A stretch of 64,000 nucleotides of DNA from Candidatus Altimarinota bacterium (lineage in GTDB: Bacteria; Patescibacteriota; Gracilibacteria; UBA4473): assembly GCA_965231215.1 (NCBI GenBank), contig OZ246423.1, forward strand, positions 224,001 to 288,000, given 5' to 3'. The notes below the pieces were generated by a model that worked only from the letters and a program-made list of their open reading frames with translations, did not search any database and had not been told where the DNA came from. The first letter of the stretch is position 1; every line of letters starts with the position of its first letter. Below, piece after piece: positions 36,490 to 54,300 of the stretch. Both the position numbers and the translations under genes were made by a program.

Positions 36490-39400
36490 TTATTTTTCAG
36501 AAGCTTCATCATTGGCTTCCATATCAGCCTCTACCTCAGCCAGGTCATCATCACTTGGCTCTTCGGTTTCAACTGCAGCTTCTTCGGTGGTCTCAGGCTC
36601 TGGAGGTTGTTCCTCTAGATTTGAAGCAGCCTCCCCATCTTCGGTATGAACCCCTGTGTCATTGTTTTCAACTTCATTCTGGTCCCCTACTTCAGCGTAG
36701 TCTTCAGACTGTTTTAGCAAAGACCGTTCTGTGTTTTCTTCAAAATCATCCATATCGGTAACTACACCTTCTTCTACTTGTCCATCTTTGAGGAGTTCTA
36801 CTTTGAGACAGAGTGATTGAAGTTCTTTCATCAATACATTGAAAGATTCTGGAATAGAAATGAGATCTACTTCTTCGTCTTTTACAATAGATTCATAAGC
36901 TTTGGCTCGGCCATGTACATCATCTGATTTGATGGTAAGCATTTCTTGTAGCGTATGAGCGGCTCCATAAGCTTCTAGAGCCCATACCTCCATCTCTCCG
37001 AAACGTTGACCTCCATTTTGGGCTTTCCCTCCTAAAGGCTGTTGCGTTACCAAAGAGTATGGCCCTACAGAACGAGCATGAATTTTATCTTCTACTAGAT
37101 GGATCAGTTTGAGCATATAGGTGGTTCCCACTACTACTTTGTGATCAAATGGTTCTCCCGTTTTTCCGTCAAAAAGAGTAAATTTACCATCGGTTGGCAT
37201 CTCATTGGCTTTCAAAAAATCTTGAATAGTATTCATTTTAATACCATCTAGAACTGGCGTTGCTACTTTGATTCCCATTTTTGAAGCGGCCATTCCAAGA
37301 TGCGTTTCAAGCACCTGCCCAATATTCATCCGTGATGACACCCCAAGTGGATTGAGAATAATATCTACTGGTGTTCCATCCTCCATATAGGGCATGTCTT
37401 CAGAAGGAACAATTTGTGAGATAACTCCTTTATTTCCATGACGTCCAGCCATTTTATCTCCAGCTTCTAGGTGACGCATTTGAGCCACTTCAACAATAAC
37501 TCGTTTAAGAACTCCTGTTGGTAAGTCATCCCCTTCACTTCGATCTAGAATTTCAACATTGATTACTTTTCCTCCTGAACCCCTAGGCAGGCGAAGCGAG
37601 CTGTCTTTTACATCATGAGCCTTTTCACCAAAGATGGCTCGAAGCAGTCTATCTTCTGCGGTTAGTTCCGTTTCTCCTTTTGGCGTTACTTTCCCCGCCA
37701 AGATGTCTCCAGCTAGAGCGGTGGCCCCAATTCTTACAATACCCCCTTCATCAAGATCTTTCAGTTTTCCAGCGGCCACATTGGGGATATCAGCGGTCAA
37801 CTCTTCTGGCCCCAGTTTCGTATCTCGGACATCCATTTCATATTTTTCAATATGGATAGAATTAAAAAGTCCTTCTCTCACAATCCGATCAGAGACAATC
37901 ACCGCGTCCTCATAGTTGTATCCGCCCCATGACATATAGGCTACTTTAAGGTTGCGTCCTAGAGCTAAATCTCCTTTTTCTACAGAAGCTCCGTCTACAA
38001 GGGTTTCTCCTTTTTTAACTTTGTCTCCAGTGAAAACTCTTGGTCTTTGAGAAATACAGGTAGATTGGTTTGTCCTTTCAAAAGCTTTTACTTCATAGGT
38101 GTATTTTTTACCAGATTTACCCACAAAAGTTACTTCACTACTGTCCGCATATTTTACTTCTCCGTCTTCTGGAGCTCGTGTTACTTCTTCTTCAGAAGTA
38201 ATATGTTCCATTCCTGTTCCAATCACTGGAGATTCAGGACGAACGAGAGGAACCGCTTGTCTCTGCATGTTCGATCCCATCAAGGCACGAGTATTATCAT
38301 CATGCTCTAGGAATGAAATAAGCGAAGTAGAAAGTGATACAATTTGTTTTGGTGACACATCAATATGTGTAATTTCTTCAGCTGAATACGAACCTGGCTC
38401 AAAGTTTTTACGAGCCGAAACATGATTGTTAATAAATTGACCTTTTTCATCTAACTTAGAATTGGCCTGCGCAATACACATATTTCTTTCATGTTCTGCT
38501 GGGTAATAATGGACTTCGTTTGTAATGTAGGGGCGGACTGAAATCTCTTTAAGATCCTTTATTTTAGCTAACGCTTTTACCGTCTTATCATCTAGGACTG
38601 TATCTTTTTTAACGGCCACTTTTTTGCCATCCATAACCTCTGAAAGAACTATATGTCCACTTCCAGATTTACCATCATTTTTAATAGTACTTTTAACAGT
38701 TCGGTAGGGCGTCTCAATAAATCCCATAGGGTTTACGCGGGCATATGAAGCTAAATGAAGCACCAGTCCAATATTCGGCCCTTCAGGCGTTGTTACTGGA
38801 CAAATCCGTCCATAATGAGAAGGATGCACATCCCGCACTTCAAATGAAGCTCGTTCTCTTGAAAGTCCTCCTGGTCCCATCGCCGAAATTCTTCGCTTAT
38901 GTTCTAGGGACGCCAAAGGATTGGTTTGATCCATGAATTGAGAAAGTTGCCCAGAAGCAAAAAATTCTCGCATAGCCGCCGTAATAGGACGACAGTTAAT
39001 CAGCTGGGTAGGCGTTACACTATCCAGTTCTACAATGGTCATTCGGTCTTTTACGATTCGTTCAGTTCGCAGAAGCCCCACTCGGAATTTGTTTTGTACT
39101 AGTTCCCCTACTCCTCGGACACGTCGATTAGAAAGATGATCAATATCATCATCACACACCTCAGTACCATTGTTGTACTTAATAAGCTGTTTGATCATTT
39201 CAATGAAATCTTCAATTCGGAATACTCGTCCTGCTTCATCATCCTTCGTCTTGAGTTCAAAACGTTGATTAATCTTGTACCTAGCAATAGGTCCAAGATC
39301 GTATTTTTTAAAATCAAAGAACATAGATTCCAAAAACGCTTTTGCATTTTCTGGAGTCGCTAAGTCTCCAGGTCGAATTCGTTTATATACTCCTTGCCAG

Positions 39401-40143
39401 GCTTCCTTGGCAGTCGTAGATTCATCTTTGTCAATGGTTTTAAGAATTGGGTTTTCTGTTTCATCCGTAATCACCTCCTTAAATAAATCCAAAATTTCTT
39501 GGTTAGATTCATAGCCAAAAGCTCGTAGGAACATCGTTACTGGGATTTTTCTTTTTCGATCTACCTTCACCCATACAAGCCCCCTTTTATCTGTTTCAGC
39601 CTCAAGCCAAGCCCCTCGTTTAGGAATCATTTTCGAAGTGTAGGTTCCCGTCACGGCTGTATTTGGTCCAAAGAAAATCCCAGGACTTCGTACAATTTGA
39701 GAAACAATAACCCGCTCAATTCCATTAATGATAAATGTTCCCGTTTCGGTGATAAGTGGCACTTGCCCAAAGTACACATCTTGTTCTTTAATCTCTCCAG
39801 ACTCAAGATTGGTCAAAGCCACATGCGCTCGGATCGAAGATTCATAAGTGAGTCCTTTTTTCTTGCAGTATGCAATCTCATGTTTTGGATCTTCTACCTC
39901 ATGAGAAAGAATCTCTAGACGCAGTTTTTTCCCTGTAGCATCTTCAATAGGATTAATTTCATCAAGCAGTTCTTGCACTCCTTCGCGCAGAAACCATTCA
40001 TACGAATTAAGCTGTACTTCAATAAGATCTGGAAACGGAAAATCCTTTCCGGTATCAGCTGTAAAAAAATGACGACCGTTGATCTCACCTTGTGGTTTTA
40101 ATGCGGCTGGGAAACTGGTTTTTTTGGTAGAAACTTTGGGCAT
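36490..40143 (-). CDS. rpoB: RNA polymerase beta subunit
   Basis: NGIERVIVSQ, DHLSNRR, SQFMDQTNP, GDKMAGRHGNKG, GGQRFGEMEVWALEAYGA; about 90-aa acidic C-tail. Confidence 0.99.
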   Translation of the reverse strand: MPKVSTKKTSFPAALKPQGEINGRHFFTADTGKDFPFPDLIEVQLNSYEWFLREGVQELLDEINPIEDATGKKLRLEILSHEVEDPKHEIAYCKKKGLTYESSIRAHVALTNLESGEIKEQDVYFGQVPLITETGTFIINGIERVIVSQIVRSPGIFFGPNTAVTGTYTSKMIPKRGAWLEAETDKRGLVWVKVDRKRKIPVTMFLRAFGYESNQEILDLFKEVITDETENPILKTIDKDESTTAKEAWQGVYKRIRPGDLATPENAKAFLESMFFDFKKYDLGPIARYKINQRFELKTKDDEAGRVFRIEDFIEMIKQLIKYNNGTEVCDDDIDHLSNRRVRGVGELVQNKFRVGLLRTERIVKDRMTIVELDSVTPTQLINCRPITAAMREFFASGQLSQFMDQTNPLASLEHKRRISAMGPGGLSRERASFEVRDVHPSHYGRICPVTTPEGPNIGLVLHLASYARVNPMGFIETPYRTVKSTIKNDGKSGSGHIVLSEVMDGKKVAVKKDTVLDDKTVKALAKIKDLKEISVRPYITNEVHYYPAEHERNMCIAQANSKLDEKGQFINNHVSARKNFEPGSYSAEEITHIDVSPKQIVSLSTSLISFLEHDDNTRALMGSNMQRQAVPLVRPESPVIGTGMEHITSEEEVTRAPEDGEVKYADSSEVTFVGKSGKKYTYEVKAFERTNQSTCISQRPRVFTGDKVKKGETLVDGASVEKGDLALGRNLKVAYMSWGGYNYEDAVIVSDRIVREGLFNSIHIEKYEMDVRDTKLGPEELTADIPNVAAGKLKDLDEGGIVRIGATALAGDILAGKVTPKGETELTAEDRLLRAIFGEKAHDVKDSSLRLPRGSGGKVINVEILDRSEGDDLPTGVLKRVIVEVAQMRHLEAGDKMAGRHGNKGVISQIVPSEDMPYMEDGTPVDIILNPLGVSSRMNIGQVLETHLGMAASKMGIKVATPVLDGIKMNTIQDFLKANEMPTDGKFTLFDGKTGEPFDHKVVVGTTYMLKLIHLVEDKIHARSVGPYSLVTQQPLGGKAQNGGQRFGEMEVWALEAYGAAHTLQEMLTIKSDDVHGRAKAYESIVKDEEVDLISIPESFNVLMKELQSLCLKVELLKDGQVEEGVVTDMDDFEENTERSLLKQSEDYAEVGDQNEVENNDTGVHTEDGEAASNLEEQPPEPETTEEAAVETEEPSDDDLAEVEADMEANDEASEK

Positions 40144-40502: not shown

Positions 40503-41141
40503 CTATTCAGCAAATTGAAAAGTTCCAAGCACCGTCTCTAATCCGTAGTAATTGATATCAAATTGATCTTCTGTAGCCGTATAAGTAACGACATACACTG
40601 TTCCATCTTTAATCGTAATAATTTGAGCTACCTTTAGCTCAGTCTCCTCTTGATCCATTGCGTAAGTAACCATTTTAGCTCTTTGGCCAGCTATTTCACC
40701 GTCCTCTTTTGAGAGCACTTCATAATCATCAAAGAAAGCCTCAAGCTCTGAAACAGATTTTTCAATATACTCATCCAGAGAAATATCTTTATTCGCTTCA
40801 TCTAAATTTTCTAAAACAATATTTACATTTTCTTGAAAATCATCAGCACTGCCAGATAAGGGGGAAAGGAACATCACTAAAGTGCCAAAGTGATTATCTC
40901 TTTTTTCCCAATTATCTGGGTAGTTGAAAGAAATACCTTCGTTGTTATAAGTACCCGCAACACCCGTATTGGTTTCACTTTCATCCAAAGCCTGATCTAT
41001 AGTTTCAGAAAGGTCTTGACTGAATTCTTCCACAGGGGGCCCTGGAAGTGTGTTTTGCTTCTCTTCTGGGGTTTTGGCCCTACAGGCGGATAAAGACAAA
41101 ATCAAAACAAAAGCGAGACCAAAAGTGTATAATTTTTTCAT
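40503..41141 (-). CDS. PsbP/DcrB-like lipoprotein
   Basis: Lipobox LSAC; ISFNYPDNW, FQENVNI, YVVTYTA. Confidence 0.75.
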   Translation of the reverse strand: MKKLYTFGLAFVLILSLSACRAKTPEEKQNTLPGPPVEEFSQDLSETIDQALDESETNTGVAGTYNNEGISFNYPDNWEKRDNHFGTLVMFLSPLSGSADDFQENVNIVLENLDEANKDISLDEYIEKSVSELEAFFDDYEVLSKEDGEIAGQRAKMVTYAMDQEETELKVAQIITIKDGTVYVVTYTATEDQFDINYYGLETVLGTFQFAE

Positions 41142-41353
41142 CAGGCCAATTCTATGCTTCACTCAAAACAAACACAAATTTGATTTCACCATTTGCATTA
41201 ATAAACTTCGTTTAGACTTTTTAATACTTCCCAAAATCTTCACACAAAAACACAGAGCAGAAGCCCCCTTTTGTGTGAAAGAAAAGTAATGATGAAGGAA
41301 CGTGCCATTTTCTTTTAAAAAACAAACCAAACAAAAAAATCGAGTTAAAAAAT

Positions 41354-41443
41354 GGAGAGGTGACAGAGTGGTCGAATGTGCTCGCCTGGAACGCGGGTGT
41401 GGGGGCAACTCCACCGTGGGTTCGAATCCCATCCTCTCCGCCA
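41354..41443 (+). tRNA. tRNA-Ser(GGA)
   Basis: GGAGAGG...CTCGC-CTGGAAC-GCGGG, long variable arm, GGTTCGAATCC..CCTCTCCGCCA. Confidence 0.96.
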
Positions 41444-41653
41444 GAACATACACTAATGGCACCTGATTCCTTTCCACTCTAGTGGACAGTAATGAGGAGC
41501 TTTTGTGTATTTAAAGAATTTAAACCCTTTCTAGGATTGGTTCTAGTGTTTCAAGGGTAGTAGACCTATAACCATATCTAGAGTGGGCACTAAGGGCGAT
41601 TTCCAAAGAACAAAAAAGGCTCCAAATAAATCACTTGAAGCCTTGTCTTAACA

Positions 41654-41818
41654 TTACCTCTCAGTACCACTATAATCTTCATCTTCCCAATCTTCTTCAT
41701 CCTCATAAGATTGAATTTCAGTCATAATATCTCGAATGCTACGTCCACGTGTACGGAGTGATTTAAAAACGAACTTTGAATTTAAGTCGGAGTCGTTTTT
41801 ATATGTTAGATTTTTCAT
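41654..41818 (-). CDS. Small protein with acidic tail (54 aa)
   Basis: Below the track cutoff. MKNLTYKNDSDLNSKFVFKSLRTRGRSIRDIMTEIQSYEDEEDWEDEDYSGTER, starting 12 nt after the preceding stop. Confidence 0.55.
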   Translation of the reverse strand: MKNLTYKNDSDLNSKFVFKSLRTRGRSIRDIMTEIQSYEDEEDWEDEDYSGTER

Positions 41819-41830
41819 GATTATTTAAGG

Positions 41831-42265
41831 TTAAAAGCTATGATCTAGCGACTTTTTGTCGATGACATCAAATTTATCGAGTTCTTTATAGTAGATAATA
41901 TAGATCAACAAGTTCGCTAGACTAAAACAGGCATACAAAATATTCACCCACAAGCTTTGGTCATTGATAGCAAAGATAACCTCTATGGCTGGCGCTATAA
42001 TGGCGATTTGCACCAGATATTTAATGCTTAGATTCTGATACTTAAAATAAAACACCATTATTTTGTACGCTTTTAAAAGCACAATGATGTAAGCAATGTT
42101 GTGAATAATGTTATTAAAGTCAGGTTCAAAGCTAGTCAACAAAAGGTTGAGTCCCATTCTAACGCTGTAAATTATCAACGCTAAAATTGTGATCATAATA
42201 ACTATCGTAAACACAAAATCGGTGTACTTCGTGATTTGTTCGATTCTGGCTTTAATATTTTTCAT
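41831..42265 (-). CDS. PsiE-like membrane protein
   Basis: 144 aa, 4 TM segments, YF.....IKYLVQIAIIA pattern. Confidence 0.6.
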   Translation of the reverse strand: MKNIKARIEQITKYTDFVFTIVIMITILALIIYSVRMGLNLLLTSFEPDFNNIIHNIAYIIVLLKAYKIMVFYFKYQNLSIKYLVQIAIIAPAIEVIFAINDQSLWVNILYACFSLANLLIYIIYYKELDKFDVIDKKSLDHSF

Positions 42266-42271
42266 ATTTTT

Positions 42272-44647
42272 TTAGGCCGTTAGTGTAAATTGTTTTTGGC
42301 GGTTTCTCAGCCAGCGGCGAACCAGTCCAAAAATGACAATCAAAATCGGCATGATAAGAACATTTGCCCAACGTATAGTGGCTTTAGCCTCATCTGACAT
42401 GAGTTTTATTGGACGATCGGTAATTTGTTTAGAACGGATAGAAATCAATGATTCTCCAATGGTTAGAGCATCAATAGCATTACTCATAAATACTAGATTT
42501 TCAGGAGAGTTTTGAATGAACTCTCGGGTGATGAATCGAGTATTGGGTACAAACAAGAATTTTCCTTCTCCCTCTCGCTGTGCCATAACCGCTAATGGAA
42601 GCGGTTCTCGTTCTTCTCGAGTGATTCCAAACTCCTGCTGAGGATCGAGTGAAATCATGGTATCTGTCCAGACTTCTTTCATTTCTGGCTCGGGAGTTTC
42701 TTCATTATTTTCTGCTTCTGAGTTTTCGCCACCCCCTTCAACTTCAGACTTTTCAGTAGATCCCTCAGGTTCTACTGGCACTTTGCTCAGTTGTTTTCCT
42801 GGAAGTTCTTGATAATACGGTGAAGTTTGAGCGAGTACTTCGATATTAACATCGTCTTTTTCAGTTACTTCAATCGGGCTTACCCAAGGGAACGTGACAC
42901 TTGGAAGATCCCCAGTAATAGCATTTTCTTTCGCTAGATCGACTGATTTTACCCAGAGAGGGTATGGAAGACTCATGCGAAAAAAACCTCCAGAAAAGCT
43001 CGCATTATCATTTACCGCATCAGCAATAAGGCTCGTTCGGATATTCAATCCGTAGTCCTCCAAAATATTGGCGAAGTCAGTAGAAGCATTCTGGGTGAAT
43101 GAACCAAGTACATTAATAGCATCCGTTAGAAAGATAATATTTTTACCCTCGGTTGATAAAGATTTCAGCTTTTCAGCCTCTTCATCCGTAAAATCCTCTG
43201 TAGCGCCCGCAATAATCAAAGTTTGCAGTTCCGAAAGATTTTCATCTTCTAGGGTTACACTTCGAACTTCATAGTTTTTACTCAAAACATCCTGCAATGG
43301 AATCTCATCTTCTCCACCTTCTCGGAATCTTCGTTCCAAATTACTCAGGGTTTTCGTTCCATGGTCGCTTAAAAAGCCAATGATCGGTAGTTTTTCCGTA
43401 GAAACTTTCTTTATGGCTGAGGTGAGTTGGTACTCAAAGTCACTCAAATCGGTAATCGCTGGTAAAGTTTCAAATTTAGTAAATCGTTCAGAAAATTCGG
43501 TTTTAGAACTATCTTCGGTGGTAACCGCCAATCCCAAATAAGCTTGTACTACTTGCTGTTGATCTCGTTCGATCACTTGTAATTGAAGGGGTAATACACC
43601 AAATTGATATACCCAATTTTGAGCGTCTTCATCTGTTTTTGGATCAAGAATTTCTAACTCAAGATGTCCACTACTTCGAGATTCATATTCATCAAGCATA
43701 TCTTGAACATCTCGAGATAAGCTTTGCATTTGAGCTGGAATATTGCTCGATATAAACGCTTTAATGGAAACTGGCTTTTCGAGTGTTTCCAAGATGTCTT
43801 TTGATGCGGTTGAAAGGGTGTAATTTTTATTAGCCGTTCCATCAAAACGTGCGAAAGCAAACTGACTCCCAATGTTGAGTAAAATAGCGACTAAAACCGT
43901 AACGGCTGTAGCACTTCGCCAGAAAAGACGCTTTGGCCAAAAGGAAGCGGACAAGAAAGCCATATTAGCCAGTAAAAACAAGCTTATAAAGCTGACATAG
44001 AAGATAATGTCTCGAGTATCAATAACTCCACGAATCATCGATTTATAGTGAGCGCCCAAACCAATTTGTCCTAAAATTTCTCCAATCACGCTCGGAAAAA
44101 AGATGGTCACAAAGCCTTCTCCAACAATGTAGAAAGCAAAACACACCAAGATAGAAATAAGAAAGGCGACAATTTGGTTTTTCGTAATAGCCGAGACGAG
44201 CAAGCCAATCGAAATGTACGCACACCCGAGCAGTAAGGCTCCCAGATAAGAAATCCAAACCACACCCCAGTCAAGGCTTCCAAGGGTTGAGACAGAAAAG
44301 GCAAATGGCAGCGTCAAAGCTAAGGCGAGCAGTAAAAAGAGTCCAATACTGGCGGCTTTGGCAAGCACGATTTTTATGGGGGATATTCCGCTGGTAAATA
44401 AAGTCTCAATGGTTCCAGACCTTGTTTCTTCCGCCCAAGAACGCATGGTAAAGCTCGGAATCAGGAAAAGGAATGTCCACGGCAGTAAGAGAAAAAAGTC
44501 TCTCATGTCAGCTTGTCCAAGTAGAAAGAACGTTCGAAAGAACATCCAACCACTAAAACTAAGAAAGACCGCTAAAAAGACATACCCAATAGCAGAGTTA
44601 AAGAATATACGAAATTCTTTCTGAATAATGGCTAAAATTGATTTCAT
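42272..44647 (-). CDS. GldF-like ABC-2 permease fused to a GldG-like extracytoplasmic domain
   Basis: KEFRIFFNS, TMRSWAEE.RSGTIE.L, TKNQIVA, RGVIDTRD; then RFD.T..K.YTLS, EYQLTSAI, N..F..NAID, LISIRSK. Confidence 0.85.
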   Translation of the reverse strand: MKSILAIIQKEFRIFFNSAIGYVFLAVFLSFSGWMFFRTFFLLGQADMRDFFLLLPWTFLFLIPSFTMRSWAEETRSGTIETLFTSGISPIKIVLAKAASIGLFLLLALALTLPFAFSVSTLGSLDWGVVWISYLGALLLGCAYISIGLLVSAITKNQIVAFLISILVCFAFYIVGEGFVTIFFPSVIGEILGQIGLGAHYKSMIRGVIDTRDIIFYVSFISLFLLANMAFLSASFWPKRLFWRSATAVTVLVAILLNIGSQFAFARFDGTANKNYTLSTASKDILETLEKPVSIKAFISSNIPAQMQSLSRDVQDMLDEYESRSSGHLELEILDPKTDEDAQNWVYQFGVLPLQLQVIERDQQQVVQAYLGLAVTTEDSSKTEFSERFTKFETLPAITDLSDFEYQLTSAIKKVSTEKLPIIGFLSDHGTKTLSNLERRFREGGEDEIPLQDVLSKNYEVRSVTLEDENLSELQTLIIAGATEDFTDEEAEKLKSLSTEGKNIIFLTDAINVLGSFTQNASTDFANILEDYGLNIRTSLIADAVNDNASFSGGFFRMSLPYPLWVKSVDLAKENAITGDLPSVTFPWVSPIEVTEKDDVNIEVLAQTSPYYQELPGKQLSKVPVEPEGSTEKSEVEGGGENSEAENNEETPEPEMKEVWTDTMISLDPQQEFGITREEREPLPLAVMAQREGEGKFLFVPNTRFITREFIQNSPENLVFMSNAIDALTIGESLISIRSKQITDRPIKLMSDEAKATIRWANVLIMPILIVIFGLVRRWLRNRQKQFTLTA

Positions 44648-45573
44648 TTTTGTTGTTGGGTTAAGTGTCTAAAGATGTCTTCTAGTGAAGCTTTTTGGAG
44701 AGAAAGACCGATCAAATCTAATTTTGCCTGAATAACTTTTCGAGCCACTTCCGCTCGACAGTCATTGTCCGCATGAACAAGAAGTATATGATCTGATTTT
44801 TCTACATGAGTTACTCCTTTTATGGCCTCAACAGCTTTTTTAGCTTTGGTTATATCAGACGCTTTACCGTCAATTTCTACCGCAATATGGAATTGCGCTT
44901 CACTACTCCCAAAAGATAGTTTTGATTTTTCACTTTCCTCGATCACTTGTCCGTTATTGATAACTATTACGTTATCAGCCATAGCTTCTACCTCTTGCAT
45001 GATATGGGTAGAGAGAAGGATCGTTTTGTCTTCTTTCCACGAAGCAATCAGCTCTCGGATTTCTAAAATCTGATTGGGGTCAAGCCCGGTGGTGGGTTCA
45101 TCCAAGATCAAAATCTCCGGATCATGAATGATGGCTTGAGCAAGTCCGACTCTTTGTTTATACCCTTTGGAAAGTTCTGAAATATCGAAGTAAAGTTTTT
45201 CACTTAAACCACAAGATTTAGCGACAATTCGAATGCGTTTTTCTCTCTCAGATTCAGGAATGCCATGTATTTTGGCACTAAAGTCTAAGTGTTCCCATAC
45301 ATTGAGTTCGGGATAGAGAGGCGCATTTTCAGGTAGATACCCGATATGGCTCTGGAGACGTTCTCGGTTTTTTTCGGTTAAGACCTCACCATCAATGAGC
45401 ACCTGCCCACTACTGGCCTCTAAAAAACCTGTAATTATCTTCATAGAGGTGGTTTTCCCCGCTCCATTTGGACCGAGGAGAGCGGTGATTTTTCCTTTTT
45501 CAATGGTGAAATTCACGCCGTCTAGAGCGATAAAATTTCCATAACGTTTTTGTATATTTTGGAGTTCAATCAT
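44644..45573 (-). CDS. ABC transporter ATP-binding protein (GldA-like)
   Basis: GPNGAGKTT, LSKGYKQRVGLAQA, LDEPTTGLDPNQ, STH. Confidence 0.93.
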   Translation of the reverse strand: MIELQNIQKRYGNFIALDGVNFTIEKGKITALLGPNGAGKTTSMKIITGFLEASSGQVLIDGEVLTEKNRERLQSHIGYLPENAPLYPELNVWEHLDFSAKIHGIPESEREKRIRIVAKSCGLSEKLYFDISELSKGYKQRVGLAQAIIHDPEILILDEPTTGLDPNQILEIRELIASWKEDKTILLSTHIMQEVEAMADNVIVINNGQVIEESEKSKLSFGSSEAQFHIAVEIDGKASDITKAKKAVEAIKGVTHVEKSDHILLVHADNDCRAEVARKVIQAKLDLIGLSLQKASLEDIFRHLTQQQK

Positions 45574-45584
45574 CTTATAGAGCG

Positions 45585-46154
45585 TTAATCGGTAGTAATA
45601 GGAATAACATCTGTTGAAGCTGGTTCAACTGATTTTTTTGGCAGAGTTATAGTAAGGGTTCCGTCTTTGTATTTTGCTTCTGTAGCTGATTTGTCTACAG
45701 GATGAGGCAGAAGGATTTGGCGGGCAAAGCTCCCACTTAATCGCTCTCGGTAGTAATATTTTTTATCATCTTTTTCTTCTGACTCCTGATTTTCTTTCTT
45801 TCCCTGAACCATGAGCCAGCGATCATTTTTAACTTCTACTTCAATATCTTCCAGATCAAAGTGTGGAATATCAATCGTAGCAACTAATTGATCTTCTTGT
45901 TCTTCTAAATCGAGGGGGTAGTTGTTCGCTATCGAAATTCTAGGAAAAGAAAAATCCCATAAGTTACTATTCCAACGATTCATAAAGTTTCGATGATAGG
46001 AAAAGAAAGGGTCATCAAAAAAGGGATCATCCCAAATATCTTGGTATCGATTATTGTTCGTTTCTTCATTTCGTTCCCACCAAAAAGCATGGGCTGTAGT
46101 GTGACTCAACAAAATAAGGCCGAGCAAAAAAACAGATATGATTTTTTTCATCAT
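45585..46154 (-). CDS. Hsp20/alpha-crystallin protein with N-terminal signal peptide
   Basis: MMKKIISVFLLGLILLSHTTAHA|F; core YYRERLSGSFARQILLP...AKYKDGTLTITLPK. Confidence 0.85.
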   Translation of the reverse strand: MMKKIISVFLLGLILLSHTTAHAFWWERNEETNNNRYQDIWDDPFFDDPFFSYHRNFMNRWNSNLWDFSFPRISIANNYPLDLEEQEDQLVATIDIPHFDLEDIEVEVKNDRWLMVQGKKENQESEEKDDKKYYYRERLSGSFARQILLPHPVDKSATEAKYKDGTLTITLPKKSVEPASTDVIPITTD

Positions 46155-46220
46155 TAAAAAGGTTAGAAAATAATTAAGCATTCCCAGCCCCTAAGTTAAG
46201 AGACTGGGAATATAAAAGAT

Positions 46221-46700
46221 CTACTTCAGAAGTTTCACTTTTAGACTTTTGCGCTTACTTTCTTCCCTTTTGGGGATTTCGATCGTTAATACTCCGTTTT
46301 TAGAACTGCACTCTGCTTCTTCTAAATGAGCAGAAGCAGGAAATTGAAGTTTCTGATAAAAAGAACCACTCATACGTTCATTTCTGAGGTATTTACTAGA
46401 ATTTTCTTCAGAAGCAGATTCGCGACTTCCATGAACAATAAGAGCATTATCTTCGATTTCGACAGAAACATCGTCAGGATCAAATCCTGGCAAGTCCATC
46501 TGAGCGATAAATTTATGTTCTTCTTCACGAACATCCATTGCTGGGCTCATGTGGTGCTTAGTTGATCCATGTGTGTCAAAAAATGGATCTTGAAAAAATG
46601 GGGAAGTTCCCCAGAAATCTCCAAAAAAATTTCCTAGACTAGAGTCAAAAGGAGATGGAGAAAGCGTTTGTGGCCGATGCCGAACGATTCTTGTACTCAT
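46221..46700 (-). CDS. Hsp20/alpha-crystallin protein (cytoplasmic)
   Basis: PAMDVRE, DLPG, ERMSGSF, KNGVLTIEIPK. Confidence 0.92.
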   Translation of the reverse strand: MSTRIVRHRPQTLSPSPFDSSLGNFFGDFWGTSPFFQDPFFDTHGSTKHHMSPAMDVREEEHKFIAQMDLPGFDPDDVSVEIEDNALIVHGSRESASEENSSKYLRNERMSGSFYQKLQFPASAHLEEAECSSKNGVLTIEIPKREESKRKSLKVKLLK

Positions 46701-46722
46701 GATGAATAAAGATTAAGAAATA

Positions 46723-46749
46723 TTAGCAGTCTCATTATAAGACTGCCAA
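46723..46749. promoter_or_regulatory. CIRCE-like operator (HrcA)
   Basis: TTAGCAGTC-N9-GACTGCCAA versus consensus TTAGCACTC-N9-GAGTGCTAA, 22 nt upstream of the hsp20 start. Confidence 0.8.
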
Positions 46750-46940
46750 AAAAGAGAGTCAAGAAAACTTATATTGACAAAGTCAATTTCTTGAAATTTT
46801 GATAAATTTTTAAGGGTAAAAATGTGACCGATGCACTATGAGGATAGGGCTGGAGGATAAAACTAAGCTTGAGATCTTGTTGAGCTTTATGGGGATTGAT
46901 ACAGTTTTTGAAGTGGGTTCGAATCCCATCCTCTCCGCCA

Positions 46941-47077
46941 TTTTAAAAATATCAGGCTTATGCCTGATTTTTTCAAGTAACTCGGAAGGTATGAGAACCC
47001 GTATCTGAAAGAGGGGTTCGATACACAGTCACGCTAAAAACTTTTCAAAAGCTTGAGTAATCCCTGTCTCTCCGCCA
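46941..47077 (+). repeat. tRNA-associated repeat unit ending in a degenerate tRNA-Ser 3' end
   Basis: Terminator-like hairpin, then GAGAACCC...GGGTTCGA, then AATCCCTGTCTCTCCGCCA (47059-77), 137 bp after the att copy. Confidence 0.6.
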
Positions 47078-47196
47078 GAAAAACAGACCATAAGGCATTA
47101 AATTAATCTCGGCATACAGAAGATTGATCCCTCTCTTTTAGAGGTAAATTGAGTCAGTAACCCAATACTTATCTACCTAAACTTTAAAAAGAAAAA

Positions 47197-48030
47197 CTAT
47201 TTAATAGTTTGCCCTGGCAAAATAAGATCAAGAACTCCGTGCCCCATCCATTTTTTAATAAATTTGGCTACTTTTCCATCTAGGTTTGGCGTGTACCTTC
47301 TTTTAGGCGCACTACTTCGAGCTGCATGCAGCACCGCCTTGGCTATCGTGTCTGGGGATGCCCCGTTATCAACTCCTTTACTCCAGTGGGCCCGAAAATT
47401 TTTCATCTGCGTTTTATAAGGCGCGGCATTCGGATGTTTTTCACATTTATCAAGGTAGGGTAAACTGGCGTTATCAATATCCGTATCGATATACCCCGGC
47501 TCTATAAGCGATACCTTAATACCAAAGGCTTTCACCTCCATTCGAAGTGCATCTCCAAGCGCTTGTTGTGCATGTTTAGTGGCTGGGTACCAAGCCATAC
47601 CAGGCAACGAAACATGACCAGCACTTGAAGAACAGATAATAACTCGACCAAATTGTTGGGCTCTCATATGTGGTAAAACCGCAGTAAGCACCCTAGCATT
47701 CCCCAACACATTCACATCAAACTGGTAGCGCACATCTTCAATATCTTGCAGCTCTACTGGCCCCAAAAGACAAAATCCCGCATTGGCAAATAACGCATCA
47801 ATACGCCCTTCTTTTTCAATGATCGTATCCACCACTTTTTGCACGGCCTCATCATCGGTTACATCACAGTGCATAGCGATGGCTCCAAGAGCTTCTAAAT
47901 CTTTCATTAGTTCGACACGACGAGCCACACCATAGACTTTAAATCCATTTTCCTGCAGCATTTTTGCCGAAGCGTGTCCGATTCCAGTTGAAGCACCAGT
48001 AACCAGTGCAATTTTTTGAGAATTTTTCAT
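47197..48030 (-). CDS. SDR-family oxidoreductase
   Basis: TGASTGIG, NAG, YPATKH, IEPG. Confidence 0.93.
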   Translation of the reverse strand: MKNSQKIALVTGASTGIGHASAKMLQENGFKVYGVARRVELMKDLEALGAIAMHCDVTDDEAVQKVVDTIIEKEGRIDALFANAGFCLLGPVELQDIEDVRYQFDVNVLGNARVLTAVLPHMRAQQFGRVIICSSSAGHVSLPGMAWYPATKHAQQALGDALRMEVKAFGIKVSLIEPGYIDTDIDNASLPYLDKCEKHPNAAPYKTQMKNFRAHWSKGVDNGASPDTIAKAVLHAARSSAPKRRYTPNLDGKVAKFIKKWMGHGVLDLILPGQTIK

Positions 48031-48396
48031 GAAATTTTAAATGAGTACTTACTCACTTTGTAAATTATAACTTGGAAGTCAAATTAATTTTTTAACGCGC
48101 TAATGAACTCTCAATTCATTTAAAGCTCTAAAGTTTTTTCCAAATTTTTGATTTTTTAGAAATGGTTCTGAGTGAGCATTAACCCGTGTTTTTAGAAAAA
48201 TATTTTTTCATTGAAAATTTTTTTTGTCAATTAATTTTTTAGTTTTTAGTTTTTTACTTAAAGGATATCTTCACTTTTTTTTATCGTCTTTTTTTGAGCA
48301 CAAAAATAGTTCTTAATCTTGACTTAATATTCACATAGTAGAACTTTAGATAATTTTATGTTCCAATAAACAGGTACAAAAATGTGATTTTTTAAA

Positions 48397-51300
48397 ATGA
48401 ATCAAAAATTCCCTCATCGGTTGCTGGTTTCACTGTGTGTCGTATCTTTCGTATTTTTTAATAACGCCTCCCTTGCTCTGGCTGCCCCTGGGGGAGTGCA
48501 GACTGATCTGGGGTTGTGGCTCAAGGCTAATGCCGGCGTCTTCTCTGACGCGGGGACAACCGCCGCCACCGATGGAGCGGAGATTCAGGAGTGGCAGGAT
48601 CAATCCAGTGCCGGTATTGACGCGACAGAAGCAACCAATAGTAATCAGAGGCCGACTTTTCAGAGCGATGCAGCTAACCTGGTAAATTTTAATCCCTCCG
48701 TTCTCTTTGATGGGTCAAATGACAGATTTTTGCTGGATAGCAATAGTATAGCCCTGGGAAACACGAGCTATTCGTTTCGCGCGGTCAGTACGGTAGGAAC
48801 CAATAGCAATGGAAACGCCATTCTCGGTAGCGCCGGTACCGGTACTCGAAAAAGTACATTATTAGAGCTTAACGCGGGGAGTCCTCCGCAGGTGTTTTCT
48901 TTCTGGCAGGCTACTAATTTGAGCGCGGATGCCACCAATGTTGACAACGATGATATTGTGATTGTAGGAGATAATTATGACAATACGGTCGGGCGAACGG
49001 TTTTTTCCAATGGTCTGCAAATAGGCTCAAACGCAAATACTAGTCATAGTGCGACAGATGGGCTCATAAAAGTAGGAGAGTTTTCTACTACTGGGAGTAC
49101 CGCTGACCGGTTTACTGGGCGAATGATGGAAGTTATCGCGTATTCGAATACTAAAAGTTCAACCGAACTTAATAGGATAGATGCTTATCTGGCGCTCAAA
49201 TACGGAATCACTCTTGATCAAGCGGTCGCCACCGCCTACTTAGCCAGTGATGGTAGTACCAAGATGTGGGACGAGACGGTCAATGCTACCTATAACAACG
49301 ATATCTTTGGTATTGGGCGTGATGACGGATCGAACCTAGATCAAAGAGTATCAAAATCTCTAAATGATGATGCCATCCTGACGGTAGCATTAGATAATGA
49401 CTTTACCAGTGCCAATAATGACGCCAGTCGTACTACAGCCTTTGGTAGTGATTTAAGTTTTCTGATGTTTGCCAACAATAATGGGGCGGCCACCTTTGCG
49501 GTAGCCGGCACTAACCAAGTGCTTGACCGCGTGTGGCAAGTCCAAGAAGAAGGGACGGTAGGCTCCGTGCAACTACAGTTTGACATGGATGACGCGGACT
49601 TTGATATAGCAACGCTAGACAGATACGAGCTACTGGTTGATACCGATAACGATGCAGACTTTAGTGACGAAACCCCTGTCAGTATGACCAATACTACGGG
49701 GAGTCTCTGGAGCACTTCCTTTGATTTTACTGATGGGCAGCTATTTACGGTAGCCCTTGGAAACGCCGCTCCAACTGACATCGCCCTTGATGGAGGTAAT
49801 AGCGATACGATTATTGAAAATACCGTGGCCAACACGGATATTGGTACGCTCACCACAACAGACTCTGATGTTGCAGACACCCATACTTACAGTTTGGCCT
49901 GTAGTGTGGCTGGGGCTGACGACAGCCATTTCGCCATTGTTGGGGATAAACTGCAAAATACGACTGTCTTTGATTATGAAACGCCCGTAGACGCTAACAC
50001 GGACAATAGCTATGAAGTCTGTGTTCGTGTCACTGATTCAGGAGTGGGCAATGCGACCTATGATGAAATTCTAACGGTGGTGGTTCAAGATATTGTCGAC
50101 GAAACTCCGCCCGTGATCAGTGAAACCACCCCGGTCGATACCCCTACGAATGATAGCACCCCAAGCTACACTTTCACTACCGACGAAGCCGGGACTATCA
50201 CCTATGGAGGTAGCTGTAGTAGTGCCACTACGGCGGCCGTAGTCGGACCAAACACCGTTGACTTTAATACCTTAGCGGAAGGCCCCTACACCGATTGTAC
50301 AATCACGGTTACTGATGCCGCTAGTAATGTGTCTAATCAAATTACCGTTAGTAGCTTTACGATTGATACAACGGCGCCAACGACGACCCCACCAAGTCCA
50401 GGAGTAACGACGCCGAGCTCAGGACCGGTGAATGCAACCGTGACCATTCCTGCCGGTAGTTGTGGAGCCGATTACGCAAACGGAACGGCCCTTTGGAATA
50501 CGAATCCAGCCGGACAAATTAATCCTCACCCAACCACGGTGAGTCTCGATGCCAGTGGAGACTACCCTCAAACGGTACTCGATACTTCTGGGTCTTCTGG
50601 TTCCTTTGATCTCACCTTAACTTGTACAGACCAAGCCGGAAACCCTGGCCCTACTCTCGATCCAGCTGTCGGTTCCTTTACCGCTGACCATGTCGCCCCT
50701 GTAATAGCTATTGATTCCCCTCTCATGGGAGATGATATCTTTAATGCCTCTGAAGCAGGAACGGTCACCATCAGTGGTTCCACTGATGCCGAAGACGGCC
50801 AAACCGTTGCCGTTTCCGTCGGCACCGTTAGTGGTAACACGACCGCCTCTTCTGGAACCTGGTCACTCGTCTTAGACCTCTCTGGTGAAGCCAACGGGTC
50901 TTTGGCCATAACCGCAGACGTCAGCGACATCGCTGGTAATGCAGCTACTCAAGCAACCGCTTCTATTACTAAAGATGCGGCCGCCCCTACTACAACACCA
51001 CCTACTCCTGGAGTAACAACCCCTGCGGTAGGGCCAGTCGGCCCAACCGTAACCATTCCTGCCGGTAGTTGTGGAGCCGATTACGCAAACGGAACGGCCC
51101 TTTGGAATACGAATCCAGCCGGACAAATTAATCCTCACCCAACCACGGTGAGTCTCGATGCCAGTGGAGACTACCCTCAAACGGTACTCGATACTTCTGG
51201 GTCTTCTGGTTCCTTTGATCTCACCTTAACTTGTACAGACCAAGCTGGAAACCCTGGCCCTACTCTCGATCCAGCTGTCGGTTCCTTTACCGCTGACCAT

Positions 51301-54300
51301 GTCGCCCCTGTAATAGCTATTGATTCCCCTCTCATGGGAGATGATATCTTTAATGCCTCTGAAGCAGGAACGGTCACCATCAGTGGTTCCACTGATGCCG
51401 AAGACGGCCAAACCGTTGCCGTTTCCGTCGGCACCGTTAGTGGTAACACGACCGCCTCTTCTGGAACCTGGTCACTCGTCTTAGACCTCTCTGGTGAAGC
51501 CAACGGGTCTTTGGCCATAACCGCAGACGTCAGCGACATCGCTGGTAATGCAGCTACTCAAGCAACTGCTTCTATTACTAAAGATGCGGCCGCCCCTACT
51601 ACAACACCACCTACTCCTGGAGTAACAACCCCTGCGGTAGGGCCAGTCGGCCCAACCGTAACCATTCCTGCCGGTAGTTGTGGAGCCGATTACGCAAACG
51701 GAACGGCCCTTTGGAATACGAATCCAGCCGGACAAATTAATCCTCACCCAACCACGGTGAGTCTCGATGCCAGTGGAGACTACCCTCAAACGGTACTCGA
51801 TACTTCTGGGTCTTCTGGTTCCTTTGATCTCACCTTAACTTGTACAGACCAAGCCGGAAACCCTGGCCCTACTCTCGATCCAGCTGTCGGTTCCTTTACC
51901 GCTGACCATGTCGCCCCTGTAATAGCTATTGATTCCCCTCTCATGGGAGATGATATCTTTAATGCCTCTGAAGCAGGAACGGTCACCATCAGTGGTTCCA
52001 CTGATGCCGAAGACGGCCAAACCGTTGCCGTTTCCGTCGGCACCGTTAGTGGCAACACGACCGCCTCTTCTGGAACCTGGTCACTCATCTTAGACCTCTC
52101 TGGTGAAGCCAACGGGTCTTTGGCCATAACCGCAGACGTCAGCGACATCGCTGGTAATGCAGCTACTCAAGCAACCGCTTCTATTACTAAAGATGCGGCC
52201 GCCCCTACTACAACACCACCTACTCCTGGAGTAACAACCCCTGCGGTAGGGCCAGTCGGCCCAACCGTAACCATTCCTGCCGGTAGTTGTGGAGCCGATT
52301 ACGCAAACGGAACGGCCCTTTGGAATACGAATCCAGCCGGACAAATTAATCCTCACCCAACCACGGTGAGTCTCGATGCCAGTGGAGACTACCCTCAAAC
52401 GGTACTCGATACTTCTGGGTCTTCTGGTTCCTTTGATCTCACCTTAACTTGTACAGACCAAGCTGGAAACCCTGGCCCTACTCTCGATCCAGCTGTCGGT
52501 TCCTTTACCGCTGACCATGTCGCCCCTGTAATAGCTATTGATTCCCCTCTCATGGGAGATGATATCTTTAATGCCTCTGAAGCAGGAACGGTCACCATCA
52601 GTGGTTCCACTGATGCCGAAGACGGCCAAACCGTTGCCGTTTCCGTCGGCACCGTTAGTGGTAACACGACCGCCTCTTCTGGAACCTGGTCACTCGTCTT
52701 AGACCTCTCTGGTGAAGCCAACGGGTCTTTGGCCATAACCGCAGACGTCAGCGACATCGCTGGTAATGCAGCTACTCAAGCAACCGCTTCTATTACTAAA
52801 GATGCGGCCGCCCCTACTACAACACCACCTACTCCTGGAGTAACAACCCCTGCGGTAGGGCCAGTCGGCCCAACCGTAACCATTCCTGCCGGTAGTTGTG
52901 GAGCCGATTACGCAAACGGAACGGCCCTTTGGAATACGAATCCAGCCGGACAAATTAATCCTCACCCAACCACGGTGAGTCTCGATGCCAGTGGAGACTA
53001 CCCTCAAACGGTACTCGATACTTCTGGGTCTTCTGGTTCCTTTGATCTCACCTTAACTTGTACAGACCAAGCCGGAAACCCTGGCCCTACTCTCGATCCA
53101 GCTGTCGGTTCCTTTACCGCTGACCATGTCGCCCCTGTAATAGCTATTGATTCCCCTCTCATGGGAGATGATATCTTTAATGCCTCTGAAGCAGGAACGG
53201 TCACCATCAGTGGTTCCACTGATGCCGAAGACGGCCAAACCGTTGCCGTTTCCGTCGGCACCGTTAGTGGTAACACGACCGCCTCTTCTGGAACCTGGTC
53301 ACTCGTCTTAGACCTCTCTGGTGAAGCCAACGGGTCTTTGGCCATAACCGCAGACGTCAGCGACATCGCTGGTAATGCAGCTACTCAAGCAACCGCTTCT
53401 ATTACTAAAGATGCGGCCGCCCCTACTACAACACCACCTACTCCTGGAGTAACAACCCCTGCGGTAGGGCCAGTCGGCCCAACCGTAACCATTCCTGCCG
53501 GTAGTTGTGGAGCCGATTACGCAAACGGAACGGCCCTTTGGAATACGAATCCAGCCGGACAAATTAATCCTCACCCAACCACGGTGAGTCTCGATGCCAG
53601 TGGAGACTACCCTCAAACGGTACTCGATACTTCTGGGTCTTCTGGTTCCTTTGATCTCACCTTAACTTGTACAGACCAAGCTGGAAACCCTGGCCCTACT
53701 CTCGATCCAGCTGTCGGTTCCTTTACCGCTGACCATGTCGCCCCTGTAATAGCTATTGATTCCCCTCTCATGGGAGATGATATCTTTAATGCCTCTGAAG
53801 CAGGAACGGTCACCATCAGTGGTTCCACTGATGCCGAAGACGGCCAAACCGTTGCCGTTTCCGTCGGCACCGTTAGTGGTAACACGACCGCCTCTTCTGG
53901 AACCTGGTCACTCGTCTTAGACCTCTCTGGTGAAGCCAACGGGTCTTTGGCCATAACCGCAGACGTCAGCGACATCGCTGGTAATGCAGCTACTCAAGCA
54001 ACCGCTTCTATTACTAAAGATGCGGTGGCACCAACGACGACCCCACTCCCAACTACCCCAACAGCGACAGGGGTGGTTACCTCTCCAACAGCCATTGCAG
54101 GAAGTTGTGGTCTTGAAGCCGCCAATGGGACGGTGTCATTTACTACTACTCCAACTGGAGGACTTAATCCTGATCCGCAGGTACTTACACTAGACGGCAA
54201 TGGTGATTATAGTGGTACGCTCTCATGGGATGCCGGTAGTGATGGCAATAGCTATAGTCTCGATGTGACTTGTATTGATGCTGCCGGTAATATAGGGCCA

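Follow-up and report, generated by a model that had tools for sequence, protein, structure and literature searches.

A mobile 5.6-kb cassette at tRNA-Ser encodes a predicted exported Hsp20 under putative HrcA control

An operon with two hsp20 genes inserted at tRNA-Ser

We analysed a 64,000-nucleotide stretch of DNA (the window) from Candidatus Altimarinota bacterium, a marine member of the Gracilibacteria within the Patescibacteriota (contig OZ246423.1, positions 224,001 to 288,000). Its minus strand carries one compact unit between 41616 and 46762, running from a promoter through to a terminator-like hairpin and encoding two proteins of the small heat-shock protein (sHsp) family Hsp20, named here Hsp20A and Hsp20B. 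Behind the promoter and a controlling inverted repeat of chaperone expression (CIRCE), the order is hsp20A, a hairpin, hsp20B, the gene for a GldA-like ATPase of an ATP-binding cassette (ABC) system, the gene for a fused GldF/GldG-like permease, a PsiE-like gene and an open reading frame (ORF) of 54 residues. The features of the unit are as follows.

46734-46762, minus strand: sigma-70-type promoter TTGACT-17-TATAAT, agreeing with the consensus at 11 of 12 positions
46723-46749, minus strand: putative CIRCE-type HrcA operator, TTGGCAGTC-N9-GACTGCTAA, with the -10 hexamer within its spacer
46221-46700, minus strand: hsp20A, 159 residues, Pfam HSP20, with no hydrophobic segment
46179-46212, minus strand: hairpin between hsp20A and hsp20B, conserved, followed by a T-rich tract
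45585-46151, minus strand: hsp20B, a precursor of 188 residues; signal peptide at residues 1-22 (46151-46086), predicted to be cleaved between AHA and FWW
44644-45573, minus strand: GldA-like ABC ATPase, 309 residues (Pfam ABC_tran, NCBIfam GldA), its stop overlapping the permease start by 4 nt
42272-44647, minus strand: fused ABC-2 permease/GldG-like protein, 791 residues (Pfam, NCBIfam, AlphaFold2 (AF2), Foldseek)
41831-42265, minus strand: PsiE-like membrane protein, 144 residues, below the cut-off of Pfam PsiE, with four hydrophobic segments
41654-41818, minus strand: ORF of 54 residues with an acidic C-terminus, without family match, 72% identical to the copy in the related genome G009
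41616-41644, minus strand: terminator-like hairpin of 13 pairs with the T-run tail TTTTGTTCTT, the end of the operon

This arrangement had been described in a first-pass annotation, and its observation is confirmed: the CIRCE-like box, both hsp20 genes, the hairpin, the ABC ATPase, the fused permease and the PsiE-like gene were all found, all on the minus strand, and the tight spacing noted from the second hsp20 onward was measured as 11 nt, -4 nt (an overlap), 6 nt and 12 nt. The list of genes stood, but the PsiE-like gene (and the 54-residue ORF) fall just outside the range of 42272-46749 given for it; the intergenic hairpin, placed at 46181-46210, extends here from 46212 to 46179. Sequencing runs containing the locus comprised no RNA runs and six runs of DNA or unknown type, from four studies.

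The host genome is a single contig of 1.326 Mb with a GC content of 39.9% and is 99.3% complete; as a whole it encodes just two Hsp20 proteins (Hsp20A and Hsp20B) and one GldG-like protein. It was compared with 40 relatives (41 genomes with the host), a class sample of 401 genomes and a phylum sample of 401 genomes; the tally of the phylum sample takes in one unpublished genome (G547), on which no claim depends. Repeats of the 3' end of a tRNA gene lie on both sides of the operon.

41354-41443, plus strand: tRNA-Ser(GGA) (ARAGORN; Rfam 53.6 bits), whose 3' end, 41416-41443, forms the left copy of a 28-nt direct repeat and the insertion site
46913-46940, plus strand: perfect second copy of the 28-nt tRNA-Ser 3'-end repeat, the right border of the conserved cassette
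47059-47080, plus strand: degenerate 22-nt copy of the tRNA 3'-end repeat (86% identity), the outer right end by comparison with the empty site of genome G004

The operon forms a horizontally mobile stress cassette of 5.6 kb that has inserted at the tRNA-Ser 3' end. In G004, a complete genome of the same genus, the tRNA is 100% identical and is joined directly to sequence matching the window from 47081 onward (98%). This junction represents an empty site, which sets the insertion in the window at 5.6 kb, from about 41447 to 47080. None of the four genomes of the same genus yielded a homologue of Hsp20B or of the PsiE-like protein, and for the permease one of them, G001, gave a single marginal match. 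The same cassette is carried by G009, a record titled "Patescibacteria group bacterium UBA4473", and by three marine metagenome contigs. Nucleotide homology between the host and one of these contigs, L034, covers exactly 41425-46899 (80.6% over 5497 nt), and the flanks are unrelated. The L034 copy has tRNA-like fragments at both borders; 346 nt beyond it begins the gene for a large serine recombinase, of which the host genome has a 62%-identical copy elsewhere. Between cassette copies, Hsp20B is the least conserved of these proteins, at 68-78% identity; Hsp20A, the ATPase, the permease and the PsiE-like protein reach 86-93%.

Predicted export of Hsp20B and control by HrcA

A search of 5.8 billion proteins returned eight close relatives of Hsp20B, 58-97% identical. 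All nine sequences, query included, combine an MKK start, a hydrophobic core of 11-13 residues and a small-x-A site followed by F(W/G)(W/L); position -1 of the cleavage site is A in 9/9 and position -3 is A, T or S in 9/9. The signal of Hsp20B reads MKK / IISVFLLGLILL / SHTTAHA, with F as the first residue after the cut, and its core has a hydropathy of 3.19 over 12 residues, too short for a membrane helix. The signal peptide was called by rule (n-, h- and c-regions, small residues at -3 and -1) and by conservation, and the predicted mature protein has 166 residues, a mass of 19.9 kDa, an isoelectric point of 4.6 and no cysteine. The gene had been placed at 45585-46154; the gene itself was recovered, but its start at MMKK (46154) gives way to MKK at 46151, which the homologues favour and at which 7 of the 8 relatives' gene calls begin. 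As to a start beyond the hydrophobic segment, all candidate starts (46181, 46154 and 46151) precede it, and the next methionine lies at about residue 57, within the conserved N-terminal region.

The host genome encodes SecY (346.8 bits), signal peptidase I (Peptidase_S26, 130.4 bits) and LspA (111.4 bits). Omp85/BamA was not found in this 99.3% complete genome, and the host is predicted to be without an outer membrane. With no Omp85 found, "exported" is used here for a position at the outer side of the one membrane or in the wall zone.

Hsp20B matched Pfam HSP20 (PF00011) with 75.2 bits against a cut-off of 20.8, and its closest solved relative was wheat Hsp16.9 (PDB 1gme; profile match, E = 3.3e-29). 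The AF2 model comprised a beta-sandwich over residues 80-172, mostly with a predicted local distance difference test (pLDDT) score above 90, a low-confidence loop at 121-140 and the signal peptide as a separate helix. The aromatic N-terminal arm DPFFDDPFF is retained, and a C-terminal I-P-I is present at residues 183-185, with I183 and I185 invariant in 9 sequences and I185 invariant in 26. The C-terminal IxI/V motif of sHsps anchors oligomer assembly. Hsp20B reads as a genuine sHsp, with predicted holdase activity and oligomers. Its neighbour Hsp20A (Pfam HSP20, 80.8 bits) groups with the cytoplasmic, mostly CIRCE-linked Hsp20s of relatives and is, judged by its sequence, an ordinary cytoplasmic small heat-shock protein.

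A second, independent case of an Hsp20 with an export signal was recognised in G012, a genome of the same family and another genus (73% complete, with a masked N run within hsp20A). The operon runs there from a TTGACA promoter and a CIRCE site, with TATAAT in its spacer, through a cytoplasmic Hsp20 and a lipoprotein Hsp20 to a PsiE-like gene. The second Hsp20 carries the lipobox LSGC, is 36% identical to Hsp20B and has in common with it an HR..M..RWNS region in the N-terminal arm; LspA is present in G012. That related proteins in equivalent positions of the operon bear different export signals is difficult to account for if the protein does not function outside the membrane. The PsiE-like protein encoded directly after the lipoprotein Hsp20 is 59-60% identical to that of the cassette; the operon has no ABC genes, and a permease homologue was not found in the G012 genome at its 73% completeness. 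The G012 operon thus indicates that the recurring set is a cytoplasmic Hsp20, an exported Hsp20 and a PsiE-like protein, not an Hsp20 and an ABC system. An extracytoplasmic second Hsp20, as proposed in the first-pass annotation, is supported by the signal peptide in 9/9, by the lipoprotein version in G012 and by the presence of SecY, signal peptidase I and LspA; Hsp20B is predicted to be exported and cleaved.

Scanned with HMMER, 1.84 billion representatives yielded 29,690 matches at E <= 0.001. A hydrophobic N-terminus was present in 39 of the 150 best representatives, as classed by a crude hydropathy rule for which the G012 protein falls just below threshold: 15 resembled signal peptides, 21 had a transmembrane (TM) anchor after a short tail and 3 had a lipobox. 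Hsp20s predicted to be exported or anchored are thus met with repeatedly in metagenomes. A quick IQ-TREE tree of 60 rows, with support from the Shimodaira-Hasegawa-like approximate likelihood ratio test (SH-aLRT) only, grouped Hsp20B with other signal-peptide Hsp20s (81-90), placed Hsp20A among cytoplasmic Patescibacteria Hsp20s (97) and recovered a TM-anchored clade (98). Other signal-bearing Hsp20s were scattered over the tree, which suggests repeated gain of export signals; the G012 lipoprotein stood on a long branch, its placement unsure. That hsp20B arose by recent duplication of hsp20A was rejected, since this quick tree separates the two. No further signal-peptide Hsp20 was present in either sample among its 30 best Hsp20 loci (for the phylum sample, 29 besides the host's own), and exported Hsp20s are by these surveys rare within Patescibacteria.

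The TM-anchored family (P0022, P0025, P0028, P0030 and 17 more) consists of proteins of ~215-250 residues with a conserved Q after the TM helix, a linker and an alpha-crystallin domain; one member, from Candidatus Omnitrophota, is annotated merely as Hsp20 family protein. Separately, 8 of the 29 further phylum-sample loci (L124, L125, L132, L136, L137, L147, L148 and L150) encode an N-terminal helix-turn-helix (HTH) fused to an alpha-crystallin domain. These fusions measure ~235-280 residues, their HTH looks XRE-type (LSQEELA..LG(V/I)SRQS...E.G), and they might be temperature- or client-sensing regulators.

The -10 hexamer TATAAT of the cassette promoter sits in the 9-nt CIRCE spacer, so the operator (46749-46723) overlaps the promoter (46762-46734). 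The CIRCE pattern TTAGCASTC-N9-GASTGCTAA, with at most 2 mismatches, has a single match in the window, against 0.01 expected; 1 of 100 shuffles contained a match. The operon's repeat has 3 mismatches to the canonical CIRCE, TTAGCACTC-N9-GAGTGCTAA, and 1 to a local C/G-swapped form, and several host CIRCE sites share with it this C/G swap in one arm (GCAGTC/GACTGC). Scanning the host genome for the canonical CIRCE with at most 4 mismatches gave 11 distinct sites; 8 were examined, the remaining 3 being weak. Six of the eight lie directly upstream of dnaK, of dnaJ, of an M48 (HtpX-like) protease gene, of the Cpn60 gene (two tandem sites ~350 nt upstream) and of the hsp20 operon. The seventh site is flanked by clpB at 279 nt and, at 83 nt, by a divergent AI-2E-family transporter gene; the eighth is weak and extends over the start of a FemAB-family ORF. 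Host CIRCE loci L002-L007 are at genome positions 58389, 144038, 430363, 779086, 1296837 and 1296870. Operator and -10 coincide in 3 of 7 host operators, which have an exact TATAAT inside the spacer; across the related loci L033-L036 (n = 4), the operator arms are conserved and the spacer is variable.

Control of the cassette through CIRCE and HrcA, which the first-pass annotation had suggested from the box upstream of hsp20A, is supported by the presence of hrcA in the host genome (80.7 bits) and by the same operator at the classical chaperone genes dnaK, dnaJ and Cpn60, at the M48 protease gene and beside clpB. In the class sample, 18 of the 27 other Hsp20 loci have a CIRCE-like site within their ~3.4 kb, which suggests that HrcA heat-shock control of Hsp20 is the norm in the group. 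A literature search turned up no paper on HrcA in Patescibacteria among the matches listed. We infer that HrcA represses the operon via the predicted operator. Bound to CIRCE over the -10, HrcA would silence the cassette at normal temperature, and heat or proteotoxic stress would release it together with the dnaK, dnaJ, Cpn60 and HtpX-like protease genes, and probably clpB.

The hairpin between the two hsp20 genes had a centroid energy of -21.5 kcal/mol (z = -2.74), and 3 of 200 shuffles folded equally well. It is probably, from its predicted fold, a partial terminator or attenuator, which would cut read-through and leave smaller amounts of the genes downstream of hsp20A. An in-frame ATG lies at 46181, upstream of hsp20B; the frame is open in relatives too and the stretch is conserved at the nucleotide level, and it looks regulatory, not coding. 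A role for the hairpin as an RNA thermometer was dropped, since it ends 28 nt before the favoured hsp20B start. The alternative ATG at 46181 would be sequestered by the hairpin. An Rfam scan detected the tRNA only (53.6 bits), with a sub-threshold tmRNA-like match of 14.1 bits over the tRNA-fragment repeat and no known RNA thermometer.

The ABC system and readings of the cassette

The ATPase matched Pfam ABC_tran with 124.4 bits. GldA, GldF and GldG were the top NCBIfam matches for the ATPase and for the two halves of the fused protein, with scores below the equivalog thresholds (TIGR03522, TIGR03518 and TIGR03521: GldA 325.4 < 402.6; GldF 183.8 < 288.5; GldG 148.6 < 389.85); by these scores, the ABC proteins are homologues, not equivalogs, of GldA, GldF and GldG. 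The fused protein consists of a GldF-like permease (residues ~1-240) and a GldG-like ectodomain (~268-753; DUF7088 plus GIFT/ABC_transp_aux) bracketed by TM segments 241-267 and 754-781. Three Pfam families scored above their cut-offs: ABC2_membrane_2 (PF12679) with 43.3 bits, DUF7088 (PF23357) with 91.8 and ABC_transp_aux (PF09822) with 96.9. The AF2 model reached a pLDDT of 87.7 and a predicted TM-score (pTM) of 0.78. Foldseek matched the ectodomain to the IFT52 GIFT domain (TM-score 0.74 on target), OST48/Wbp1 and ThuA-like proteins, and the membrane part to NosY (TM-score 0.72 on target, root-mean-square deviation 3.8 A) and PmtCD; by sequence, the permease matched NosY with E = 4.6e-4. 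The DUF7088 region, which contains no cysteine, had a profile match to thioredoxin-fold proteins with E = 1e-4.

The PsiE-like protein scored 18.4 bits with Pfam PsiE (PF06146; cut-off 23.9, E = 0.0025), and a search of the ESM Atlas (0.91) returned PsiE clusters in 30/30 matches. Homologues are present in 30 of the 401 class genomes; among these genomes an Hsp20 adjoins the PsiE-like gene only in G012, and in G000 and G009 the two are separated by the ABC genes. It is the PsiE-like protein that is found again beside the exported Hsp20 of the distant relative G012. One PsiE-like family of the class sample, f22 (L087-L094, L097), has in-frame TGA codons, and its lineages may read TGA as a residue.

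Collectively, an HrcA-controlled, exported Hsp20 is well supported as a prediction from sequence and comparison, and we find it fairly probable that the cassette is a transferable HrcA-controlled envelope stress module, the core of which is an exported ATP-independent holdase. Once exported via Sec, Hsp20B would be located at the membrane's outer face or in the wall zone. There it may serve unfolded envelope or secreted proteins as an ATP-independent holdase, or else protect the membrane. The GldA/GldF-GldG-like ABC system would be an add-on to the exported Hsp20, found only in the cassette, with export of an envelope component or energy-coupled work at the outer face as its candidate roles.

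Several points weigh against this reading. The export claim comes from a rule-based reading and from conservation, both at the level of sequence. A soluble secreted sHsp could simply diffuse away from a cell without outer membrane, and the usual ATP-dependent recipients of sHsp clients, DnaK and ClpB, do not occur on that side of the membrane. The family is also a narrow one: leaving aside G012, which is only 73% complete and has a masked N run in hsp20A, the exported Hsp20s of known context are copies of one cassette. As to mobility, none of the six cassette ORFs is a recombinase by Pfam or NCBIfam, and the GC content of the cassette (0.39-0.40) is the same as that of the genome. Covariation in the intergenic hairpin is almost nil (n = 3 sequences).

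The first-pass annotation had gone further and joined the exported Hsp20 and the GldAFG-like ABC system into one machine. In such a model Hsp20B would hold unfolded envelope proteins, and their release, refolding, extraction or disposal would fall to the ABC system, which would draw on cytoplasmic ATP and pass its energy across the membrane as NosDFY or MacB do; the ABC system may also tether the otherwise soluble Hsp20. We regard this as unlikely, although the genes are tightly coupled (11-nt gap, 4-nt overlap, 6-nt gap) behind one CIRCE promoter, the arrangement is kept in 4/4 other cassette copies extending far enough, and the permease resembles NosY (TM-score 0.72 on target), whose complex serves a periplasmic partner. 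The Hsp20 is moreover lipid-anchored where the ABC system is absent (G012) and has a cleavable signal where it is present, which fits tethering, in two lineages only. An Hsp20-ABC linkage was indeed found elsewhere, in G009 and the three metagenome contigs, but all are copies of one ~80%-identical cassette, not independent, and so count as a single observation. G012 has an exported Hsp20 without adjacent ABC genes, and no permease homologue was found in that 73%-complete genome. Permease homologues occur in 10 of the 40 relatives (11/41 with the host), one of them, in G001, marginal (E = 5e-4 over ~95 residues), and an Hsp20 stands next to GldFG-like genes only in G009 among these relatives; G035, G026 and G033 have neither Hsp20 nor CIRCE beside their GldFG-like genes, across the 5 kb or more available ahead of the ATPase gene, and the contigs of the other five are too short to judge this flank. 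The fold of the ectodomain (GIFT/ThuA-like, with a cysteine-free thioredoxin-like DUF7088) gives no pointer to protein handling. A complex prediction for mature Hsp20B and the GldG-like ectodomain scored 0.00 against a mark of 0.32, which is evidence neither way. Cooperation between Hsp20B and the ABC system is possible but unsupported, resting on co-transcription within one mobile cassette; the one-machine claim finds no support in G012, with its exported Hsp20 and no ABC, or in G035, G026 and G033, with GldFG-like genes and no Hsp20.

Somewhat more doubtful still is a role for the exported Hsp20B other than that of a holdase, either in stabilising the outer leaflet or the wall under heat, an effect that the membrane-associating sHsps Lo18 and Synechocystis Hsp17 are reported to have from the cytoplasmic side, or as a surface or structural protein built on a re-used alpha-crystallin fold, with the ABC system exporting an unrelated envelope component. 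In favour of such a role, the lipoprotein version in G012 would bring the domain right to the surface of the membrane, every co-transcribed partner is a membrane protein, and Hsp20B diverges faster than the other cassette proteins (68-78% vs 86-93%), as is common for surface-exposed proteins. Against it, Hsp20B keeps the features of client binding and assembly, namely the aromatic-rich N-terminal arm, the invariant IxI and the core residues of the alpha-crystallin domain.

We likewise see only a slim chance that the protein stands for an undescribed class of extracytoplasmic sHsps, Sec-exported, lipid-anchored or TM-anchored, coupled here to a GldFG-type ABC system that supplies ATP-driven work or a tether. 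If true, it would be the first energy-coupled protein-rescue system outside a bacterial membrane, travelling as a plug-in unit with its own HrcA operator.

It is highly improbable that the hydrophobic N-terminus is not an export signal, through a later start or attachment to the inner face, and that the two proteins are ordinary cytoplasmic tandem sHsps like ibpAB: tandem sHsp pairs are common, the start is ambiguous among 46181, 46154 and 46151 and export is read from sequence, but every candidate start precedes the hydrophobic segment, with the next methionine at about residue 57, the n/h/c pattern and the small -3 and -1 residues are kept in 9/9 despite sequence variation in this stretch, the G012 relative has a lipobox instead, and, from the positive MKK ahead of the 12-residue core, the C-terminal part is expected to be translocated.

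The surroundings of the cassette yielded further observations. The right flank (47059-49000), with a short-chain dehydrogenase/reductase (SDR) gene and the start of a giant protein gene, is 98% identical to G004, and an rpoB segment (39005-40043) is 77% identical to its counterpart in G004, which lies 15 kb away there and on the other strand; this suggests a recent exchange or rearrangement around tRNA-Ser. The giant gene (48397-56544, plus strand) is an ORF of 2715 residues with a signal-peptide-like start, at least six near-identical internal repeats of ~190 residues and a GC content of 0.53-0.54, compared with ~0.40 elsewhere; it probably encodes a giant surface protein. On the tRNA side, a PsbP/DcrB-like protein with a lipoprotein-type start, LSLSAC, is encoded just outside the cassette (40503-41162, minus strand). 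The 1217-residue ORF at 36490-40143 (minus strand), taken as rpoB from its sequence, ends in a very acidic, E/D-rich tail of ~90 residues.

Significance and relation to known systems

Bacterial sHsps are textbook cytoplasmic holdases, and the known stress chaperones outside the membrane come from unrelated families. Finding an export signal on a conserved Hsp20 under predicted heat-shock control suggests that bacteria employ the alpha-crystallin fold beyond the membrane as well; the release of clients by a holdase without ATP then becomes directly testable with one small protein. The locus further shows that an entire stress module, together with its operator, is able to pass between lineages of Patescibacteria, which have tiny genomes and depend on their cell surface. 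For GldG-type ABC systems outside Bacteroidota, heat-shock control would be a first physiological context.

Hsp20B resembles the cytoplasmic sHsps (E. coli IbpA/IbpB; wheat Hsp16.9) in its alpha-crystallin domain, aromatic N-terminal arm, IxI motif and heat-shock control, and ibpAB consists, like hsp20A/hsp20B, of two adjacent sHsp genes. It differs from them in a predicted cleavable Sec signal and a place outside the membrane, where there is no DnaK or ClpB. A literature search of main texts found no description of a Sec-exported bacterial Hsp20, and a 2021 review of stress-responsive periplasmic chaperones, in the parts consulted, treats sHsps as cytoplasmic only (PMC8144458).

A closer parallel in targeting is offered by the compartment-targeted sHsps of plants, such as chloroplast Hsp21 (PDB 7bzw), which was among the PDB matches and likewise joins an sHsp core to an N-terminal targeting peptide. 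Their destinations are eukaryotic compartments containing ATP-dependent chaperones, whereas that of Hsp20B would be the outside of a bacterial membrane. ER-class (endoplasmic reticulum) plant sHsps carry a signal peptide. The ATP-independent periplasmic stress chaperones Spy, HdeA/HdeB and Skp are under envelope-stress systems, not HrcA; their folds are unrelated to Hsp20B and they are found in diderm bacteria. The job proposed here for Hsp20B, that of a stress-induced holdase in an ATP-free compartment, is nevertheless like theirs as described in the parts of the review consulted (PMC8144458).

Turning to the ABC system, GldA, GldF and GldG of Flavobacterium johnsoniae are the best NCBIfam matches. 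GldF and GldG are fused in the host as one protein of 791 residues, scoring below equivalog level, and a gliding role of the Bacteroidota type is unlikely in a host without outer membrane; the matches listed by a literature search on GldG were all gliding-related, judged by title and abstract. The permease fold matches NosY, and NosDFY (PDB 7o0y, 7qba) acts on an extracytoplasmic protein partner; in contrast, the cassette is without a NosD-like partner, and its ectodomain has a GIFT/ThuA-like fold related to IFT52 and OST48.

As an element, the cassette shares with tRNA-targeted genomic islands the tRNA 3'-end direct repeats, the empty site in a close relative and the occurrence of the same element in another genus; unlike them, it is only 5.6 kb long, contains no internal recombinase and is not distinct in GC content. 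Its regulation follows the HrcA-CIRCE regulons of Bacillus subtilis, Chlamydia and Campylobacter, with a 9-N9-9 inverted repeat at chaperone promoters and hrcA present. The host set differs from these regulons in the C/G swap (GCAGTC/GACTGC) of several operator arms and in extending to dnaJ, an HtpX-like protease gene, a mobile cassette equipped with an operator itself and, probably, clpB.

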